Shown one piece after another: positions 5,169 to 54,756 of a stretch of DNA of 64,000 nt; the first letter of the stretch is position 1, and each line of letters begins with the position of its first letter. The notes under the pieces were generated by a model. It did not search any database. It was given only the letters and a program-made list of their open reading frames with translations, and had not been told where the DNA came from. The stretch comes from Candidatus Nomurabacteria bacterium RIFCSPLOWO2_01_FULL_39_18 (GTDB taxonomy: Bacteria > Patescibacteriota > Minisyncoccia > Phycocordibacterales > UBA9973), in the NCBI GenBank assembly GCA_001787005.1, contig MFUV01000006.1, positions 16,197 through 80,196 on the forward strand, in the 5' to 3' direction. The position numbers and the translations under genes were made by a program.

Positions 5169-5195
5169 AAAGTAAGAAAATAACAAAATTTAGAC

Positions 5196-5930
5196 ATGGA
5201 AAGCCCTCCCAAAATAATTCCATCTCTTTTGAAAAATTCTGTGGCTGAGTCCGGAGCGGTTCCAGAGCCGGCGCCAGAGCAACCAGCCGAGATTGCTTCT
5301 GAACAAGCAACTGCAACCACAAGAGACATGGTAAATGCAAAAGAAGCTCAAAAAGTTGCCAAAACATCTAGGGCTACTGAAGAAGATGTCGAACGATTGA
5401 GACAAAAAATAACTAGAATTTTCGAAGGTAGAAAAAATTATACAGAGAAAATTCATGAAATATTACAGAAACATGATGTTGCCACCCCATTTAACACTCT
5501 TAGAATTATATTGAATTCACGGGTGGAGCAAGGATTTAACCCGATTGTTAATCCAGATGCAATAAGTGCTTTGTCGACAGCAGTAGAAGGTTTAGAAAAA
5601 ATTATCCGACAATCTGAAATTACTATTGAGGATGTGAAAACAGAATTTTCAAGACATAGTGCTCTTTTAAGGTCTCTATTTGAAAATATACCAAGGATAA
5701 ATGTAATTAATGATAATACAGAAAGTCTACTATCAGTTGGTCAAGCCTTTGCGGGAATTCACAAGATGAATGAAGATCTCATTCGGGAATTTAGTGGGGC
5801 TGATGAGTCGGCCGAAAAAAAAGAAAGCGCGGAATTAAATGCAGTCTTACACGAAACAAACAATTATTTAGATAGAGCTGTCCGATATATAAACGAAAAG
5901 CTATCAGTGCTAGAAGATTACAGCAGATGA
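5196..5930 (+). CDS. Hypothetical protein.
   Basis: Called from the ORF only. Confidence 0.4.
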   Translation: MESPPKIIPSLLKNSVAESGAVPEPAPEQPAEIASEQATATTRDMVNAKEAQKVAKTSRATEEDVERLRQKITRIFEGRKNYTEKIHEILQKHDVATPFNTLRIILNSRVEQGFNPIVNPDAISALSTAVEGLEKIIRQSEITIEDVKTEFSRHSALLRSLFENIPRINVINDNTESLLSVGQAFAGIHKMNEDLIREFSGADESAEKKESAELNAVLHETNNYLDRAVRYINEKLSVLEDYSR

Positions 5931-10210: not shown

Positions 10211-10235
10211 CAGATAGAGCTTTAGACTCTATCTG
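10211..10235. repeat. Palindrome CAGATAGAGCTTTAGACTCTATCTG (REP-like).
   Basis: One of four copies, at 10211, 10652, 11131 and 27288. Confidence 0.7.
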
Positions 10236-10246
10236 TAAAATAAATT

Positions 10247-10636
10247 ATGTCAAAACCAGATGAATTTCTAAAAGCTGACAACACAGAAAAAGGCAAAGAA
10301 GCTAGATTGGCAAAAGTATTAAAAAGCCAGAGAGAGAGAGAGTTATCTAGGGTCTTCGAAAAACTTTTTCCACTAAACCAAGAAAGGTACATGTTGGAGT
10401 TTTATGATTTTGAAGAATGGACTAATTTTTTCCGTAAGTTTGGCGAAACAATTAGGATTTTATTATCACTTGATCCATTTGTTGATAATTTGACGCTAAA
10501 AACTGAATGTCAGGAAGTCCTTGTTTTATTAGATGGTCAAGACAGGAATCAGGGTAAAAGATATTCAAGTTTAGTAGAAAAACTCTTTCAATTTTTTATT
10601 GACAATCAAATTTTTCCACCATCAAAGTTACCGTAG
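10247..10636 (+). CDS. Hypothetical protein bracketed by REP-like palindromes.
   Basis: Called from the ORF only; flanked by palindromes at 10211 and 10652. Confidence 0.35.
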   Translation: MSKPDEFLKADNTEKGKEARLAKVLKSQRERELSRVFEKLFPLNQERYMLEFYDFEEWTNFFRKFGETIRILLSLDPFVDNLTLKTECQEVLVLLDGQDRNQGKRYSSLVEKLFQFFIDNQIFPPSKLP

Positions 10637-10651
10637 AATAGAATTACATTA

Positions 10652-10676
10652 CAGATAGAGGTCTAGACTCTATCTG
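10652..10676. repeat. Palindrome CAGATAGAGgTCTAGACTCTATCTG.
   Basis: Member of the family; it closes the frame just upstream of the truncated RAYT. Confidence 0.7.
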
Positions 10677-10681
10677 AGCCC

Positions 10682-11146
10682 TTGGTTGCAATTATTGCTT
10701 ATTGTCTAAATCCAAACCATTTTCATTTTATCTTAAAACAATTAGTTGATGGTGGCATAGCTAAATTTATGCAAAAACTACAAGGAGGTTATACTTATTA
10801 TTTTAATGTAAAAAATTCCCGTACCGGATCGCTTTTTCAAGGAACTTTCAAGTCACATCTCATGAATAGTGAAAATTATTTTAATAAAATTCTTGGGTAT
10901 ACAAATAAAAACTATCAAGTTCACAATATTCCAAAAAATAAAATGGATCTTATTTTCGCTAGCGACTTCGAGTATGAAAATAATAATTTTAAGATTGTTT
11001 CCAAAAAAGAAGGAAAAAGAATTTTGGAAATTTTTAATGGTAGCAAAAATTTTAAGAAACACTGCGATGAGATTGTTTCAATTATTAGAAAAGAAAGAGG
11101 TAAAACTTCTCTTTTAGAAGAAGACAATCTCCCAGATAGAGTCTAA
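10682..11146 (+). pseudogene. N-terminally truncated IS200/IS605-like (RAYT/Y1 HUH) transposase fragment.
   Basis: AYCLNPNHFHFIL matches the HUH motif AYCLMPNHFHVL of the full RAYT at 51467-52105. The region is homologous through GxxxGxFKS, but the N-terminal YHLYNRG part is missing. It begins at a TTG right after a stop inside the palindrome. Confidence 0.6.
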
Positions 11147-11159
11147 AGCTCTATCTGGG
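11131..11159. repeat. Palindrome cCCAGATAGAGTCTAAAGCTCTATCTGGg.
   Basis: Member of the family; it supplies the last codons and the stop of the RAYT fragment. Confidence 0.7.
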
Positions 11160-48204: not shown

Positions 48205-49620
48205 CTAAATTTTCGAGATTTTTTGTCCTTGATCAGTATCTTTAATTTCATAACCCAGGGAATTTATTTTTTTTCTTAAATCATCAGATTTTTTGAAATC
48301 CTTATCTTTTCGCGCTTGCTCGCGTTCTTCCGCTAGCTCGAGAATTTCTTCCGGAATTGCCTCAATTTTTAGATTTTCCAATCCCAATCCTAGCACTTTA
48401 TCAAAGTCCAAAACAGTAGTCTTTTTGTCCGCAAGGGAGATATTTTCGTCCTTTAAAATATCCCATAGCACTGTCAGTGCCCGAGGAGTGTCTAGGTCGT
48501 CTTCTAGGTAGCTTTTGAACTTTTTTTGGTATTTCGGGCTTATGGCTCCTAGTTCGCTGTCAGTCTTGCTTGTTGCTAGCTCATTGTAGAGTCCGTAGAG
48601 CCTTTTTAGGGCTATTTCTGCGCCTTCCAATGCTTCCCAATTGAAATTGACCTTAGTACGATAGCTAGACATTAGAAGCCAAAAACGGTAGGCTACCGCG
48701 CTTATTCCTTTTTCTGTGATGTTTCCTAACTTCAAAAAATCTCCCGACGACTTGGCCATTTTGGTGCCGCCAAAATCCACAAATTCATTATGCATCCAAA
48801 ATTTTACAAAAGGTTTTTTGCTAGTTGCGCATTCTGATTGAGCGATCTCATTGGTGTGGTGTGTGGGCATGAGGTCAATGCCTCCTGTATGAATATCAAA
48901 CTGCTCGCCAAGAAATTTCATGCTCATGGCTGAGCATTCTATATGCCAACCAGGAAACCCTACACCCCATGGGGATTCGAAGCCAAGAACATTTCCGCCA
49001 GAGGCGGATCCGCCTTTGGCGGAAAATTTCCACAGAGCAAAATCTTCTGGATTTTTCTTTTCTGGATTTTCAGTAATCCTAGCGTGGTCTTTATCTCGAG
49101 TTGTTTTTCCGCCCCAAAGTATTCCGTAGTCGGGCATTTTGGAAGTTTCAAAATAAATTCCATCACTCGTTTTGTACGTATAACCTTTTTCCTCCAGTTT
49201 CTTTACGAGCTCTATGTCTTCTTTTACAAAATCACTTGCAAAGTGGAGTTCTTCCGGTATTTCAATGTTAAGCGCTCGAAGATCGCTTTTAAATTTTTCC
49301 GTATAAAATTCTGCCAGCCCGCGCATATTTTTTAAGGTCAATTCTTTTCTTTCCCGCAGAAGCCCCTTGGTCATTTTATCCTCACCTGAATCCGCATCGC
49401 TCGACAAGTGTCCGATGTCGGTGATATTCATAACCCTTTTAACTTTGTATCCAGCGTATTCCAAAGTTTTTTGCAAAATATCCGCAAAAACAAAAGCTCT
49501 CAAATTGCCGATATGGGCATAATCATACACCGTCGGTCCGCATGAATATATTCTGACACGACCTTCTTCGATTGGCACAAATTCTTCTTTTTTCCGCGTT
49601 AGCGTGTTATACAATTGCAT
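48205..49620 (-). CDS. cysS: Cysteinyl-tRNA synthetase.
   Basis: RIYSCGPTVYDYAHIGNLR (HIGH) and KMAKSSGDF (KMSKS) are present. Confidence 0.9.
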   Translation of the reverse strand: MQLYNTLTRKKEEFVPIEEGRVRIYSCGPTVYDYAHIGNLRAFVFADILQKTLEYAGYKVKRVMNITDIGHLSSDADSGEDKMTKGLLRERKELTLKNMRGLAEFYTEKFKSDLRALNIEIPEELHFASDFVKEDIELVKKLEEKGYTYKTSDGIYFETSKMPDYGILWGGKTTRDKDHARITENPEKKNPEDFALWKFSAKGGSASGGNVLGFESPWGVGFPGWHIECSAMSMKFLGEQFDIHTGGIDLMPTHHTNEIAQSECATSKKPFVKFWMHNEFVDFGGTKMAKSSGDFLKLGNITEKGISAVAYRFWLLMSSYRTKVNFNWEALEGAEIALKRLYGLYNELATSKTDSELGAISPKYQKKFKSYLEDDLDTPRALTVLWDILKDENISLADKKTTVLDFDKVLGLGLENLKIEAIPEEILELAEEREQARKDKDFKKSDDLRKKINSLGYEIKDTDQGQKISKI

Positions 49621-49631
49621 TTTACCTGAAG

Positions 49632-50684
49632 TTATGTGGTTTGATTGAATTCATTTCGGTAAATTGAAATCAAAGTATAGAACAAACTTATTGCGAGCGG
49701 TCCGATTAGAATGCCGACTGGACCCAAGAATGAGATTCCGCCAAGCACTGAAAATAATATTAAAAGGGGAGAGATATTCGTTTGCTTGCTGATAATAAAT
49801 GGACTCAAGAAATTGTCAACCAATCCGACAATAATCACTGCCCAGATCAAAAGGCCGATAGCCGATGCATTATTACCGATAGCGAAGAGAAAAATAATTG
49901 CCGGTACAGAAACAAGCGCGGTTCCGACCGTCGGTAGAAGGGAAGTCACGGCGGCCACTACGCCCCAAAGAGCCGGATTGGGAACATTGAAAAGCCAGAG
50001 TCCGAAGCCCAAGAGCACCCCCTGTATAAGGGCGATAAAGAGGTATCCTTTTATTATGGCATTTACGGAGAGTGTCAATCTGTCCAGTATTTTTTCATCA
50101 TCTTTATCTTCAAGCGGACTTAAAGAAACCAAGGATCTTTTCCATCCTTCGCCGTCTTTCAAAAAATAAAAAATAATCAAAAGCATTAAGATAAATGAGA
50201 AAAAAGCGGAAACAGTAGTGCTGAATATATTTGCTATATTGTTCGATATATATGAAACAAGGTCTGTTAATTTATTTTTTACATCGAAAACAATGCTGTC
50301 AGGCAGTATTTTGTTCACGGTGCGATTTATCGAATTAAGCAAGGGCCCGATATTCCCGTTGTCTGTAACCACTTCATAAACATTCTGGCTCTGATTGAAG
50401 ACTATTGCGCCGATGCCTAGAAGCGGCCCGCAAAGAACCAAGGTAAAAAGGATTACAGTCAAAAAAGCGGAAAGCGAACTTGGCAAACGTCTTGCGTAGA
50501 GCCACTTATAAATGGGATATAAAACTATTGAAAAAGAAACTCCTAGAACAAGCACTACCCAGAAGGGTCGAAAGATCAGAAAACTAAAAATGAAGGTGGC
50601 TATCAAAAGTCCAAAGAAAAAATACCTTTCAATAATTTTTGTTTGCATATACAAGAGTATAACAAAAACCGTGCCATGCACCAA
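49632..50684 (-). CDS. AI-2E family transporter (PerM/UPF0118).
   Basis: It has eight TM helices, with KGYLFIALIQGVLLGFGLWLFNVPNPALWGVVAAVTSLLPTVG typical of the family. Confidence 0.6.
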   Translation of the reverse strand: MVHGTVFVILLYMQTKIIERYFFFGLLIATFIFSFLIFRPFWVVLVLGVSFSIVLYPIYKWLYARRLPSSLSAFLTVILFTLVLCGPLLGIGAIVFNQSQNVYEVVTDNGNIGPLLNSINRTVNKILPDSIVFDVKNKLTDLVSYISNNIANIFSTTVSAFFSFILMLLIIFYFLKDGEGWKRSLVSLSPLEDKDDEKILDRLTLSVNAIIKGYLFIALIQGVLLGFGLWLFNVPNPALWGVVAAVTSLLPTVGTALVSVPAIIFLFAIGNNASAIGLLIWAVIIVGLVDNFLSPFIISKQTNISPLLILFSVLGGISFLGPVGILIGPLAISLFYTLISIYRNEFNQTT

Positions 50685-50759
50685 GTGCCCTTTAGTTACC
50701 CTTCAAGGGTGACACTGTGGAGTTGCCTTTTTGTGGAATATCCTGTAATATAAACCCAT

Positions 50760-51098
50760 ATGGACAAAGGAGAATTTGCAGTAATACAAACAGGAGGGAA
50801 GCAGTACAAAGTCTCTAAGGGGGGCTTTCTTTCTGTTGAAAAGATCAAGGGGGGCAGTAAGGGGGAGTACAAAAAGGGGGACAAGCTTGTTTTTGATAAA
50901 GTTCTACTCCTAGATGATGGGAAAAATGCTACTATCGGCGCACCCTATATAACAGGCGCAAAAGTGGACGCGGAAATTACCGAAATCGGCAGAGCTCGCA
51001 AAATCCTAGTCGTAAAATATAAACAAAAATCCCGCTACCTCCGCAGAAACGGTCACCGCCAGCCATTTTTCAAAGTAAAAATAACTTCGATAAAATAA
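50760..51098 (+). CDS. rplU: Ribosomal protein L21.
   Basis: FAVIQTGGKQYKVSKG...RRNGHRQPFFKVKITSI. Confidence 0.85.
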   Translation: MDKGEFAVIQTGGKQYKVSKGGFLSVEKIKGGSKGEYKKGDKLVFDKVLLLDDGKNATIGAPYITGAKVDAEITEIGRARKILVVKYKQKSRYLRRNGHRQPFFKVKITSIK

Positions 51099-51126
51099 CA
51101 GAAAAATATCTATCTACAAAATCTAT

Positions 51127-51378
51127 ATGGAAGATGTACCAGAATCCAAAAATAAAGTAGAAGAAAAATTAGCTGCGATTCAAAAATTTAAGCATTCGCC
51201 AGAAGTTATTAGACAAATGATAGATGATTTAGATTTCTATCTTTCCCTTAGAATAGCAAAAACACAATTACCTTTTAATGTTAAGGTTTTTTTCAATGCA
51301 ATACATAAACAGTATAGTACATTTACTCCAGCAGAGATTAGACAATTGATAACACAACTACAGTCATATGTAAAATAA
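51127..51378 (+). CDS. Hypothetical protein.
   Basis: Called from the ORF only; it is not L27. Confidence 0.3.
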   Translation: MEDVPESKNKVEEKLAAIQKFKHSPEVIRQMIDDLDFYLSLRIAKTQLPFNVKVFFNAIHKQYSTFTPAEIRQLITQLQSYVK

Positions 51379-51433
51379 TTTGCTCACTGCTTTTTTTTTA
51401 AAGAGTGTTTTTTAGGGTGTCGTTGCCAGAATA

Positions 51434-52158
51434 TTAAGAAATACACAGGCGTTGCCTGTGTATTTCTTAAGAGCTATTGAAAAAACTAAGCCATTCGAAC
51501 AATTCATTCTGATGATCAATCAGTTTTTTGAAATAAGAAGGAAATCGCACAGGATTTAAAATTTTGAATTTTTCTTCAACATATTCTTTTGTACTTGAAT
51601 ATGGATAAGTAAAAACATATTTTAGTAAATTTTTAGTATTTCTACTTTTATTTTCCTTCCAATTTTTATCTATCAATTTTGCTGGATTCAGATGAATATA
51701 CGAATAAAGATATTTTAGATATGTGTCCTTATTCGCATGGATTGATTTAAATACACCCTCATATAATTTCCCAGTTCGTTTGTATTTTTTATTAAAATAC
51801 ATCGAATATCCAGTCATTAGTTTAAGCATATATTTAGAAATTCCATTTTTTACTTTTTCACGAACAAGGACATGAAAATGATTAGGCATTAAACAATATG
51901 CACCAATATCAATTATAGTTTCTTCGCGATCAAAAGTTTTGCCAATATCTCTTAATTTAATACTTTTCACCGTATTGCAAATATACATTAAAAACAAAAA
52001 ATAATCATAATCATTTTTATCCAAAAAGATCAGTCTTTTTTCTGTGCCACGATTATATAAATGATAATATTCATCCACAGCGAAAGATTGTTTTCTTAAA
52101 GCCATGTTTTTAAGTATAGCATAATTAAACAAATACACAGGCAACGCCTGTGTATTTG
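51434..52158 (-). mobile_element. IS200/IS605-like RAYT locus: a Y1 HUH transposase flanked by inverted copies of a ~30-37-nt palindrome.
   Basis: The palindromes TTAAGAAATACACAGGC-gtt-GCCTGTGTATTTCTTAA (51434-51470) and CAAATACACAGGC-aac-GCCTGTGTATTTG (52130-52158) bracket the transposase CDS. Confidence 0.7.
51467..52105 (-). CDS. REP-associated tyrosine transposase (RAYT, IS200-like Y1 HUH).
   Basis: It has YHLYNRG, the HUH motif AYCLMPNHFHVLV, and GKLYEGVFKS...YIHLNP. The start was moved to the internal ATG (the tracked ORF begins at a TTG at 52144). Confidence 0.75.
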   Translation of the reverse strand: MALRKQSFAVDEYYHLYNRGTEKRLIFLDKNDYDYFLFLMYICNTVKSIKLRDIGKTFDREETIIDIGAYCLMPNHFHVLVREKVKNGISKYMLKLMTGYSMYFNKKYKRTGKLYEGVFKSIHANKDTYLKYLYSYIHLNPAKLIDKNWKENKSRNTKNLLKYVFTYPYSSTKEYVEEKFKILNPVRFPSYFKKLIDHQNELFEWLSFFNSS

Positions 52159-52185
52159 TGATATCAGCTTTTATATATCATGTAT

Positions 52186-52575
52186 TTAAGATAAAAATAA
52201 CTTCGATTTCATAGAATTTCTTAAAATTGTTCCGATTCTAACAATTTTCTCACTATTTATTTTTCTTCTTGGTAAATGTCCAGCATCGTTTCTCCTATTG
52301 ATTGGTATAAGGTGTATATGAACATGTTTTATCTGACGTCCTTTTACAAAAAGGTAAATATGTTTAGATTTTAGAATCTTTCCAAGATGAAGAGCTATCT
52401 TTCTAGCAATTTTTAATAAAGATATATATTCTTTCTCATTTAAATTGAATAAAAAATCAGTATGCTTTTTGGGTACGACAAGAATGTGACCGTAATTTGT
52501 AGGATTTGTATCTAAAAATGCTATGTGATTTTTATCAACAAAAATAATTTCATTGGGGGTTGTTCTCTCTGACAA
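52186..52575 (-). CDS. HIT-family (histidine triad) protein.
   Basis: GHILVVPKKHTDFLFNL and the HVHIHLIP triad are present. Confidence 0.75.
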   Translation of the reverse strand: MSERTTPNEIIFVDKNHIAFLDTNPTNYGHILVVPKKHTDFLFNLNEKEYISLLKIARKIALHLGKILKSKHIYLFVKGRQIKHVHIHLIPINRRNDAGHLPRRKINSEKIVRIGTILRNSMKSKLFLS

Positions 52576-52614
52576 CTGAACAAAAAATACATTTTTTCAT
52601 AGAAATAAAAAATA

Positions 52615-53325
52615 TTACTGCCTATTTTTCAATGCGTTTTTGAGGGTGTCGTTGTCGGAATATTCTAGCTCAGTGCCAGTGGAGAGGCCCTTGCCCAGGG
52701 AGGAGATTTTAATATTTTGTTTATCCGCGACATTTTTAATCTGTTCTCTAACATAGGAATCTGTATGGTTACCCTGTGGGCTGACAGAAAAAGCAAGAAT
52801 TATTTCTTGAAGTGCGTTGCGTGAGGCAAGACCTAACGCGTTAGCGTTAGGTCTTGCCTCACGCATGATTTTTTCTTTTAATTCTTCAATTCGTATCTTG
52901 CTCTTGGTGTTTTTCTCAACTATCGGTACAAGCCCGCCTAGGATAAAATATTTACCATTATAAACCCGGCTTTTCTTAACAGATTCTAAATCGGAATCCT
53001 TTTCCACAACCATTAGAACAGAAGAGTCTGTACTTGTGTTGCCGCAGATGTCACACGTTTTATTTATCCCGCCATTGACGGGGTTTTTACCATTTTTCCC
53101 GCCTGCAGGAGCTATGCTTTCAGCATTGCGGGCGGGAACGATAAAAAATCGAAAACATTCTCCGCACTGCGCTACTTCTTTTTTTAGATCTGTTATCAAG
53201 AGAGCCAAATTTTCCGCATAACTTCCGTTTTTGGACATTAAAAAATAAACAAATCGTTTTGCCTGGCGCTCTCCAATGCCGGGAAATTCTTTAAAAATTT
53301 CTGTTAGTTTATCTACAATATCCAT
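52615..53325 (-). CDS. recR: Recombination protein RecR.
   Basis: It has the HhH FPGIGERQAKRFVYFL, the C4 zinc finger CGECFRFF and a Toprim domain. It also carries an in-frame 48-nt perfect palindrome insert and a C-terminal extension. Confidence 0.85.
   Translation of the reverse strand: MDIVDKLTEIFKEFPGIGERQAKRFVYFLMSKNGSYAENLALLITDLKKEVAQCGECFRFFIVPARNAESIAPAGGKNGKNPVNGGINKTCDICGNTSTDSSVLMVVEKDSDLESVKKSRVYNGKYFILGGLVPIVEKNTKSKIRIEELKEKIMREARPNANALGLASRNALQEIILAFSVSPQGNHTDSYVREQIKNVADKQNIKISSLGKGLSTGTELEYSDNDTLKNALKNRQ
52818..52865. repeat. Perfect 22-bp-stem hairpin (48 nt) inserted in frame in recR.
   Basis: TGCGTGAGGCAAGACCTAACGC-gtta-GCGTTAGGTCTTGCCTCACGCA encodes MREARPNANALGLASR. 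Confidence 0.8.
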
Positions 53326-53328
53326 AAT

Positions 53329-54756
53329 TTAAAATTCATCCAAATCTCCCTTAACTTTTGACGGGGCGAATTCGCTGATGTTGCTTTTTTCAAGGTTTAG
53401 AAATGTCGTGGTTTTTTCGTCAAAATAAAGTTCAACTTTTCCCACCGGGCCATTGCGGTGTTTTTCGATTAAAATTTCAGCGATATTTGTTTTTTCGGAT
53501 TCATCTTTCCCTTTATCGTCCCGGTGGATGAACATGACAACGTCTGCATCTTGTTCAATAGACCCAGAGTCGCGTAGGTCAGAGAGGCGAGGCTTGCCTC
53601 CGCGCGATTCTACTGCACGAGAGAGTTGAGAGAGCGCAAGTACAGGCACGTCCAGTTCTTTTGCCAAACTTTTTAATGATCTTGAAATTTCTGTCACTTG
53701 ATTAACCATTGAATCGTAATTTTTTGAAGTCGTCATTAACTGCAAATAATCCACCACGATAAGATCGAGCCCCTTTTCAGCTTTTAGCCTTCTGGAAAGC
53801 GCTTTCATTCTGACTATTGAATTACCCGGCTGGTCATCAATGTAAATTTTAGCCTTTGCCAGCTTATCCAGCGAATCTCTGAGCTTAGAAAACTCTCTAT
53901 CTGAAGACAGGCGACCCGTGCGCAAATTCCAAGCGTTGACTCGGCTTTCAGCAGAAAGCATTCTATCCACCAATTGCTGAGAAGACATTTCGAGAGAAAA
54001 AATTACCACCGATTTTTCGTGCACCACAGAAGTCATGCGCGCAATGTCTAAAGCCAAGGTGGTTTTGCCCATGGAAGGTCTAGCCGCAATAATAACCAAG
54101 TCAGACTTTTGCAAGCCCGAGAGCATAGTATCCAAATCTCGGAAACCGGTCGGAAGCCCGCGAAGCATTCCTTTGTGTTCGTGTAATTTCTCTAGGCGCT
54201 CATATGCTTCAGGCAAGGCATCTTTTAAATTTATGTATTTTTGATTTTTTGGAGACGAGACTACCGTAAAGATTTTCTTTTCTGCCATATCCAATATGTC
54301 ATCCATGTGGTCGTCACCCTCTTCAAAAGCAAGTTCAGAAACATAATCTGCTGCCTCGATTAAACTTCGGAGAACATATTTTTTCTGCACAATATCAGCA
54401 TAATGTTTAACATTGGTGCTGGAAGGGACGACGTTGACTATTTCTGCCAGATATTGGTTGCCCCCGATCGCTTCCAGTAATTTTTGTTCGGCAAGTTTTG
54501 TGGAAAGGGAAAGCATGTCTATCGGTTCATTCTTCACCGAGAGATTAAGCATTGCTCGAAAAATTATCTTATGTTTCTCGACATAAAAAGAATCAGGGCT
54601 TACCATATCTTCCACTTCGTGCATTGCGTCTTTGCGAAGCATTATTGAGCCCAATACTGCCTGTTCTGATTCTATGCTTTGTGGGGGAATACGGAGATTG
54701 CTCGATTTATTTTTTAGAACCTTAGGCATAAACTCATTCTCTACCATGCTAGCCAT
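53329..54756 (-). CDS. dnaB: Replicative DNA helicase DnaB.
   Basis: The N-terminal domain reads PQSIESEQAVLGSIM. Walker A is AARPSMGKTTLALDIA and the RecA-like motifs are present. Confidence 0.9.
   Translation of the reverse strand: MASMVENEFMPKVLKNKSSNLRIPPQSIESEQAVLGSIMLRKDAMHEVEDMVSPDSFYVEKHKIIFRAMLNLSVKNEPIDMLSLSTKLAEQKLLEAIGGNQYLAEIVNVVPSSTNVKHYADIVQKKYVLRSLIEAADYVSELAFEEGDDHMDDILDMAEKKIFTVVSSPKNQKYINLKDALPEAYERLEKLHEHKGMLRGLPTGFRDLDTMLSGLQKSDLVIIAARPSMGKTTLALDIARMTSVVHEKSVVIFSLEMSSQQLVDRMLSAESRVNAWNLRTGRLSSDREFSKLRDSLDKLAKAKIYIDDQPGNSIVRMKALSRRLKAEKGLDLIVVDYLQLMTTSKNYDSMVNQVTEISRSLKSLAKELDVPVLALSQLSRAVESRGGKPRLSDLRDSGSIEQDADVVMFIHRDDKGKDESEKTNIAEILIEKHRNGPVGKVELYFDEKTTTFLNLEKSNISEFAPSKVKGDLDEF

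Follow-up and report, generated by a model that had tools for sequence, protein, structure and literature searches.

A RAYT-like hairpin-transposase-hairpin cassette and a decayed copy of the recR tail between recR and rplU in a Candidatus Nomurabacteria genome

The REP-associated tyrosine transposases (RAYTs), named after the repetitive extragenic palindromic (REP) hairpins that accompany them, are Y1 HUH enzymes, and the one of Escherichia coli, TnpA-REP, binds and cuts the REP hairpin in single-stranded DNA (ssDNA). The insertion sequences (ISs) of the IS200/IS605 group carry enzymes of the same fold, and to our knowledge these Y1 HUH transposases make no target duplication. Two other kinds of element bear on what follows: the Rickettsia palindromic elements (RPEs), of about 100-150 nt, which insert in-frame into protein-coding genes, and the islands targeting tRNA or tmRNA genes, which integrate at the 3′ end of the gene and bring a replacement tail. 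Over-representation of the flanking 16-mer in the same genome is described as a RAYT trait (Bertels et al. 2017, PMC5581495). Here we describe a transposase gene between two hairpins that was found in the contig MFUV01000006.1 of Candidatus Nomurabacteria bacterium RIFCSPLOWO2_01_FULL_39_18, in a stretch of 64,000 nt that we call the window. The cassette, which lies between the convergent genes recR and rplU (ribosomal protein L21), is a RAYT-like module in a bacterium of the candidate phyla radiation (CPR); RAYT/REP systems themselves are well known. Full-text literature searching found no description of a RAYT, or of a REP doublet forming a hairpin (REPIN), in Patescibacteria, and the sole paper in which "REP-associated tyrosine transposase" occurs together with "candidate phyla radiation" concerns an archaeal locus.

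We consider it probable that the cassette is a RAYT-like module seated in an insertion hot spot between recR and L21, that a direct repeat bracketing part of the locus is a scar of recombination and not a footprint of transposition, and that a neighbouring HIT-family gene is a separate matter. Read in the orientation of recR, the order is recR, HIT gene, relic of the L21 tail, hairpin, transposase, hairpin, relic of the recR tail, an orphan open reading frame (ORF83) and L21. Precisely, the convergent tails of recR and L21 are each partly duplicated, and the cassette sits at a novel joint. It comprises an upstream hairpin with a perfect stem of 14 bp (52129-52159), an intact transposase gene of 212 codons on the minus strand (51467-52105) and a downstream hairpin with a perfect stem of 17 bp (51434-51470), within which the stop codon of the gene lies.

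With the RAYT/REP systems of E. coli (YafM, PDB entry 4ER8) and Pseudomonas the cassette shares a Y1 HUH enzyme with 4ER8 as its best fold match, inverted short palindromes on both sides of the gene which occur also solo and as inverted doublets, and a single full copy in the available sequence with apparently housekeeping-like divergence. It differs from them in several respects: the protein is far from the curated RAYT model and longer by about 60 residues at its C-terminus, the perfect palindromes have an AT-rich foot and no GTAG/CGTC-type tag was seen in them, the copy number is very low (none elsewhere in the 64 kb), some copies are in-frame within genes instead of extragenic, and the host is a CPR bacterium. 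With IS200/IS605 elements (IS608, ISDra2, IS200 TnpA) it has in common the Y1 HUH fold, hairpins at both gene ends and the lack of classical inverted terminal repeats, but its palindromes are identical and perfect, whereas those elements have distinct imperfect hairpins at their left and right ends (LE and RE) on one strand; moreover, no tetra- or pentanucleotide target is conserved beside the cassette, nothing points to multiple identical copies of it, and it has no tnpB. The likeness to RPEs, by description only, consists of short palindromes in-frame in conserved genes (RNase H for the RAYT-type hairpin, recR and cysS for other palindromes), although the elements here measure 25-50 nt and one family has an associated transposase gene.

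The sequence-only reading had recognised the protein as a Y1 HUH transposase, and this identification holds. The Pfam family Y1_Tnp (PF01797) matches with an E-value of 5.7e-8 and 33.3 bits against a cut-off of 23, the motifs YHLYNRG, HFH and YSYIHLNP are invariant in the transposase homologues, and across 21 close and 45 diverse homologues there is little or no variation in the HUH metal-binding motif, H77-F78-H79, or in Y133/Y135/Y137...H139-L140-N141-P142, which holds the candidate catalytic tyrosines. Searching the PDB by sequence gave no match with the single protein or a shallow profile, and weak Y1 matches (E-value 0.016-0.05) with a diverse profile. An AlphaFold model built with only the 21 close homologues was unusable (predicted local distance difference test, pLDDT, 43), and the one built on the alignment of 45 diverse sequences reached a pLDDT of 93.8. 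The best PDB fold match of the latter is 4ER8, E. coli TnpA-REP with a REP hairpin (E-value 5e-6, template modelling score 0.69 on the target, 190 columns), and the TnpAs of IS200/IS605 come next in the ranking with E-values ≥3e-4 over about 130 columns. Foldseek gave a probability of 1.00 for 4ER8, 2XO6, 2XM3, 2A6M, 2F4F and 2VJV, which places the predicted structure in the HUH fold.

As for its inheritance, the best 120 of 4649 matches to the transposase lie at 70-86% identity, apart from the 100% match to itself. No near-identical full copy in another context was found among 5.8 billion proteins, the next relative being 86% identical, and the 90% cluster of the protein holds two sequences on three contigs. 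Its divergence parallels that of the neighbouring genes (in L005, one of the loci fetched for comparison, which are here denoted by L numbers, it is 76% identical, against 77% for L21 and 71% for TrpS). Its position varies, beside maf in L001 and beside an HD_4 gene in L006. The gene is also a mosaic. When 51647-52105 of the window is compared with 4103-4560 of L001, a locus of another Nomurabacteria bin, the blocks 52105-52047 and 51948-51647 (about 60 and 300 nt) match the copy beside maf at every position and the rest is about 75% identical. The only differences between the strain contig L128 and the window are 24 substitutions in a stretch of 98 nt (51949-52046), at which L128 has the bases of L001; ten assemblies stop inside the gene, at 51948. 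As far as can be read from such patterns, the mosaic indicates gene conversion or exchange between copies, or strain mixing.

Upstream of the start codon lies TGCTATACT (52113-52121, minus strand), an extended -10-like box and candidate promoter with the ATG 7 nt downstream. A box of this type, TGnTATA(C/A)T, recurs in most of 18 hairpin-bearing upstream regions at a distance of 7-9 nt from the ATG, which suggests a dedicated promoter and possibly a leaderless mRNA; a simple -35/-10 scan did not call it.

Besides the one full copy of the transposase, the window holds one diverged and truncated Y1 gene with different hairpins. This second gene (10682-11146; Pfam Y1_Tnp E-value 1.6e-5) is N-terminally truncated and 37% identical, and its hairpin family, CAGATAGAG-N7-CTCTATCTG, occurs at 10211, 10652 and 11131 (region 10211-11159), with an ORF of 129 aa between the first two hairpins (10211 and 10652) and an inverted doublet 16 kb off, at 27287-27333.

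The hairpins had been noted at first as two copies of AAATACACAGGC-N3-GCCTGTGTATTT flanking the transposase in inverted orientation. In fact, AAATACACAGGC-NNN-GCCTGTGTATTT is present exactly twice in the 64 kb, at 51439-51465 (loop GTT, hence AAC in gene orientation) and 52131-52157 (loop AAC, hence GTT in gene orientation), with 0.00 copies expected in shuffles, and the perfect stems given above are longer than those first noted. The folding free energy as DNA is -17 kcal/mol for the 17-bp stem (z -11.8) and -14.7 kcal/mol for the 14-bp stem (z -8.8), and the upstream hairpin together with a T-rich run was flagged as terminator-like on the minus strand. The term REPIN-like, which had been applied to this arrangement, does not fit in the strict sense, the copies being about 665 nt apart with a gene between them; true inverted doublets occur in the relatives L011, L023, L028, L066 and L095.

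The proposal of a RAYT type with cognate inverted palindromes is supported by the orthologous loci, in which the start codon is preceded by a hairpin, at 9-41 nt, in 15 of 17, and the stop codon has one within about 20 nt in 14 of 17. Two classes of stem, ACACAGGC/GCCTGTGT and ACATAGGA/TCCTATGT, are related by compensatory changes. The core positions were chosen as palindromic, so evidence of co-variation can come only from the outer pairs, and these outer, unselected positions do co-vary. The stem variants follow the transposase lineage, and divergent transposases (42-45% identity) carry their own, different palindromes. Homology of the window to L094, L098 and L001 ends at the hairpins, and hence the conserved unit is hairpin-gene-hairpin.

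A scan of the JGI metagenomes for the exact core returned 35 loci. The hairpin adjoins a transposase in 18 of them and stands without one in 17, at least 12 of which are clearly solo (several lie near contig ends); since an exact core was required, the scan cannot gauge the rate at which solo copies decay. One solo copy is an inverted doublet (L095), and eight are in-frame inside an ORF matching Pfam RNase H. The loci of 80 species, about 690 kb, held one solo inverted doublet (L011). No conserved target motif was found beside the hairpins among 20 loci: AATATT abuts the hairpin in the window, in L102 and in some RNase H copies, inconsistently overall.

Some hairpin copies deserve a description of their own. 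The RNase H loci are L092, L096, L103, L106 (5408-5432 in the ORF 5193-5696), L110, L114, L121 and L122; they belong to several diverged genomes of GC content 35-48%, and the core ATACACAGGC-N3-GCCTGTGTAT is identical in them while the flanking codons have diverged, an identity subject to ascertainment bias because the core had to be exact. In L102 (117-268) a RAYT-type hairpin stands directly after tRNA-Leu(CAA), and the spacer plus the final 8 nt of the tRNA, copied in inverted orientation, lengthen its stem to about 30 bp. In L003, L005, L094, L099 and L109 there is an additional outer arm outside each hairpin, giving the order arm, arm-loop-arm, gene, arm-loop-arm, arm (in L003, for example, GCGACTACGGAGGC occurs twice upstream); these extra arms may be traces left when the hairpin foot was cleaved and rejoined.

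The second component of the locus is the direct repeat. A 29-mer had been reported at 51407-51435 and 52636-52664, and the two copies are identical at 26 of 29 bases; shuffles expect 0.00 such pairs, and the observation is therefore real. The consensus given for it stands as a repeat, with its variable positions slightly displaced: they are 7, 20 and 22. By alignment the homology between the two sites extends over about 52 nt, about 51384-51435 aligning with 52614-52664, with a 2-nt indel and including the recR stop codon; the copies lie 1229 nt apart. The functional copy (52614-52664, minus strand) is made up of the second 29-mer, the remaining tail and the stop codon and encodes EYSDNDTLKNALKNRQ, the duplicated recR 3′ tail being EYSGNDTLKNTL followed by the stop. 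The other copy (51385-51435, minus strand), formed by the first 29-mer and about 22 nt more, reads YSGNDTLKNTL and a stop in the recR frame, is decayed beyond, and directly adjoins the foot of the downstream hairpin. Its alignment score is 49, against 20 for the reverse-strand control and a shuffle maximum of 26. The repeat had been suspected to be a duplication of the insertion target, and it is indeed a true duplicate of the recR tail, not a chance match; from the alignments it is best described as a degenerating spare copy of that tail.

It had also been suggested that the second repeat copy contributes to a C-terminal extension of RecR, which is wrong. RecR ends with ELEYSDNDTLKNALKNRQ like its orthologues: in the 80 taken from species-representative genomes the last residues are without exception ELEYSDN(D/E)TLKNALKNRQ or very nearly so, and positions 1-24 of the 24 of Pfam RecR_C align to the final 24 residues. 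The functional repeat copy is thus the normal RecR C-terminus. The recR gene (52615-53325, minus strand; Pfam RecR_HhH, Toprim_4 and RecR_C) does encode an unusually long protein, 236 aa against about 203 aa, owing to a pair of GC-rich in-frame insertions within the gene that are lineage-specific. In a comparison that asked whether the recR tail of the window was imported, the last 75 nt showed 93% identity with L094 and 80% with L009, a small sample from a tail that is highly conserved everywhere; across the remainder of recR the closest relative of the window is L009.

The gene order trpS-dnaB-recR><L21-AI2E permease-cysS is kept in 80 Nomurabacteria-like species, so that rplU (50760-51098, plus strand, convergent with recR; Pfam Ribosomal_L21p E-value 1.8e-32) forms by synteny the other wall of the site, opposite recR. 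In this group the two genes usually stand tail-to-tail with 2-50 nt between them. Of 73 species, 40 have ≤150 nt from the recR stop to the L21 stop, and 29 have >400 nt, where the cargo varies: a PaaX/Cas2-like regulator, a pair of HEPN and nucleotidyltransferase genes, DUF3750, HD-domain and Ppnp-like genes, and the transposase. In the closest relative, L009 (DnaB 94% and L21 95% identical), the gap is 15 nt, an empty site. A transposase without HIT gene occupies the junction in 6 of the 80 species representatives, and further transposase-bearing junctions were found in the metagenome contigs L094, L098, L109, L113, L117 and L120. On comparison of these loci, the junction is a hot spot in which small accessory genes are gained and lost.

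Relics of the recR tail recur there, and not only beside transposases. In L025 a recR-tail repeat identical at 39 of 40 nt (score 75) brackets hairpin-transposase-hairpin alone, and the fetched loci included no empty-site locus closely related to L025 (best 80% nucleotide identity). L098 has the transposase only, with a recR relic (score 48) that starts at the same palindromic octamer, GAATATTC, as that of the window. Scores of 51, 42, 41 and 36 were obtained for relics beside transposase-free inserts in L036, L044, L116 and L010, with both shuffle and reverse-strand controls at ≤30. The relic lies to the right of the insert, which is the PaaX/Cas2-like gene in L036, L044, L059 and L116 and the toxin-antitoxin-like HEPN/nucleotidyltransferase pair in L010. 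Relics also flank transposase-free inserts, and the repeat is consequently a recurrent insertion scar and not a signature of the transposase. It does not behave as a target-site duplication either: the left copy is parted from the cassette by the HIT gene and the L21 relic, and the relics are not element-specific. An apparent recR relic in L005 and L073 (ACACCCTTAAAAAC) did not exceed the shuffle controls and was left uncounted. The PaaX/Cas2-like genes at this junction (L036 4931-5502, L044 5255-5813, L059 5066-5619, L116 4436-5058) have a conserved palindromic operator-like upstream region, with the recR-tail relic always directly after them, and in L116, whose genome lacks the transposase, a solo RAYT-type hairpin follows the relic.

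As in islands that target 3′ ends, and in homology-facilitated illegitimate recombination, the insert has a functional tail on one side and a displaced, partial one on the other, the ORF stays whole and scarless loss through the repeats is possible. The differences from such islands are that there is no integrase in or near the insert, that the relic starts vary and that both convergent tails are duplicated. With no recombinase in or beside the insert, we rejected an integrase-mediated island.

A second pair of direct repeats, missed in the sequence-only reading, concerns L21. Its 3′ tail at 51069-51098 is partly repeated at 52185-52214 (plus strand), where the last 10 codons of L21, FKIKITSIS and a stop, lie antisense to the 3′ end of the HIT gene and overlap it, between that gene and the cassette. 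The relic shares a 16-nt exact core with 51069-51091 (repeat families D1/D6/D7) and has a local alignment score of 33, against a shuffle maximum of 27.

The HIT-family gene (52186-52600, minus strand; Pfam HIT E-value 5.3e-15) is separated from recR by 14 nt and has a frameshift within the C5 run 52555-52559: translation from the ATG at 52600 yields MKKCIFCSVVRENNPQ and a stop, and the main ORF restarts at a TTG at 52575. The intact homologues (P0122-P0124) have 133 aa, start with MKKC(I/E/L)FC and read ...RKNEPPHEIIF, from which it follows that the gene of the window is missing one base of the C run. The same run is found in the independent strain contig L128; either the gene is a pseudogene or the two share a homopolymer error, and it is probably a pseudogene. 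The HIT gene is absent from all 80 species loci. In the metagenome contig L127 the recR tail is followed, after 15 nt, by an intact HIT gene (73% identical) that overlaps L21 tail-to-tail, and then by AI2E; transposase, hairpin and relic are all absent from this junction, and its L21 is intact. Each gene thus occurs alone at the junction and an L21 relic lies between them in the window, for which reason we take the HIT gene and the transposase as separate insertions; judged from these arrangements, their arrivals are independent.

We propose the following course of events. The cassette would be a REP/RAYT-type module composed of hairpin, own promoter, Y1 HUH transposase and hairpin, whose enzyme, like E. 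coli TnpA-REP, would bind and cut its cognate perfect-palindrome hairpin in ssDNA and so spread hairpin copies. The tail-to-tail junction would have been partly duplicated during the recombination of DNA into it: the incoming DNA may have brought intact gene tails, or the event may have regenerated them, which would keep both essential ORFs whole, and the displaced tails would then have decayed. The route may have been homologous recombination in the highly conserved flanking genes on one side and, on the other, an illegitimate join or a single crossover; at the nucleotide level the tail of recR is strongly conserved, and therefore DNA of a related locus can recombine through one flank. The double relic of the window fits two such events, or one that joined an allele of the recR-HIT-L21 type to one of the RAYT-relic-ORF83-L21 type. 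Recombination between the repeats could later delete the insert scarlessly, which fits the patchy distribution and the empty site of L009.

Several observations tell against this proposal. The protein scores 32.7 bits with the NCBIfam RAYT equivalog NF047646, below the cut-off of 80, the model being one of proteobacterial RAYTs. There are no further hairpin copies elsewhere in the window, and REP status is weak here. The 100%-identity blocks shared across contexts suggest recent exchange, which fits a mobile element better than a vertically inherited domesticated gene. The mechanism of the duplication is one that we infer from the loci compared, and no circular or empty-site allele of the strain was recovered, the same-strain contigs all having the same arrangement. 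Finally, the recR relic lies at or near the downstream hairpin in the window, L025 and L098, and the upstream hairpin begins 0-6 nt past the recR stop in L023, L025, L063 and L098, which would also fit a hairpin-directed, site-specific insertion. The shared blocks are what one would expect if the cassette were an autonomous and currently mobile IS of the IS200/IS605 type ending in hairpins, and not a host-maintained RAYT. The subterminal hairpins of a Y1 transposase, the contexts that differ between genomes (maf in L001, HD_4 in L006), the L001-type patch of the strain variant L128, the ten assemblies that break inside the gene and the fewness of solo hairpins nearby all agree with such an IS; we nevertheless judge it unlikely, given that no near-identical full copy was found in another context among the proteins searched, that protein divergence tracks the neighbouring housekeeping genes, that the best structural match is a RAYT and that the hairpin alone is dispersed, in-frame gene copies included. 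The hairpins are moreover perfect palindromes on both sides, often with inverted loops, unlike the asymmetric and imperfect LE and RE of IS608 and ISDra2, and lack a conserved flanking target motif. It is very unlikely that the hairpins are mere terminators or insulators around an inserted gene and have nothing specifically to do with the transposase: one and the same 23-nt core is found on both sides of the gene and across species with diverged flanks, stem variants co-vary with the transposase lineage, divergent transposases own different palindromes, and the RNase H copies are in-frame, where a terminator would do harm. The terminator-like call on the upstream hairpin with its T-rich run, and the standing of hairpins at gene ends, in L102 directly after tRNA-Leu, would be explained by it, and are compatible with a secondary terminator role.

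The duplication itself could be ascribed to the transposase, if this inserted the cassette site-specifically into the recR tail and made a target duplication of 40-52 nt that regenerates the ORF. The 39/40-identical repeat of L025, which brackets exactly hairpin-RAYT-hairpin, the common start of the relics of the window and L098 at GAATATTC, and the upstream hairpins placed immediately past the recR stop favour this account. We find it quite improbable, since the same relic lies beside transposase-free inserts, about half of the recR-linked transposase loci lack a relic, the relic starts vary (recR-tail query positions 14-16, 24-25 and 38), and in the window the left repeat is parted from the cassette by the HIT gene and the L21 relic; the absence of target duplication in known Y1 HUH transposases, a point of general knowledge, also speaks against it. 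A wider form of the same thought, that the cassette and perhaps other small cassettes insert by an undescribed mechanism which targets the last 40-50 nt of a conserved gene, possibly GAATATTC or the stop codon, copies the tail and regenerates the ORF, we regard as a long shot; if true, a Y1 HUH enzyme would be tied to a long target duplication that preserves the ORF, and the insertion could be reversed scarlessly. The sequence-only reading had taken the RAYT and the HIT gene as one segment of about 1.2 kb that was inserted as a unit, the repeats being a target duplication or a duplication carried along. The recR-tail copies do bracket both genes, and the recR-HIT gap of only 14 nt is a junction shared with L127. 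We consider this highly improbable. In L127 the HIT gene stands without transposase, hairpins or repeats, which is the very arrangement that the earlier reading had named as contradicting it; conversely, the transposase stands without HIT in 6 of 80 species and in metagenome loci (L023, L025, L028, L063, L066, L073, L094, L098, L109 and L117). The L21-tail relic lies between the HIT gene and the cassette, relatives have HD-domain, Ppnp-like and DUF3750 genes at the HIT position, and the repeat of L025 brackets the transposase alone.

The remaining features of the locus are minor. The gene dnaB (54756-53329, minus strand) lies upstream of recR. ORF83 (51127-51378, plus strand, 83 aa), between the recR relic and L21, has no Pfam or NCBIfam match, was absent from the related loci (tblastn, 0/80) and matched only itself among 5.8 billion proteins; it has an internal imperfect repeat (PEVIRQMI / PAEIRQLI) and may be a young or spurious gene. 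The segment of ORF83, recR relic, hairpin and transposase is found again, at 99.5% identity, on a short contig, L131 (1-1371), which is joined at the L21 stop to unrelated GC-rich DNA encoding an HTH protein and represents either a chimeric assembly or a second context for the segment. No credible RNA family was found in 50500-53500 (Rfam, E-value threshold 1). Within recR there is a GC-rich, in-frame palindrome at 52818-52865, with a perfect stem of 22 bp and a free energy of -30 kcal/mol, which is present in same-strain contigs only and absent from five orthologues; further GC-rich, perfect, in-frame palindromes occur at about 53075-53135 in recR and at 48987-49030 in cysS. These have no sequence relation to the RAYT hairpin and recall the in-frame palindromic elements of Rickettsia.

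For annotation, the repeat should be recorded as a recR pseudo-tail, RecR without an extension and the HIT gene as a probable pseudogene. What is known of REP/RAYT systems comes mainly from Proteobacteria, and the module described here widens their range to tiny, streamlined genomes with almost no intergenic space, in which hairpin copies are tolerated in-frame inside genes. Its very low copy number, perfect palindromes, in-frame gene copies and long C-terminal region are unusual traits. The recR/L21 junction is a natural example of how compact genomes take up cargo between convergent essential genes, both ORFs surviving because the gene tails are duplicated.

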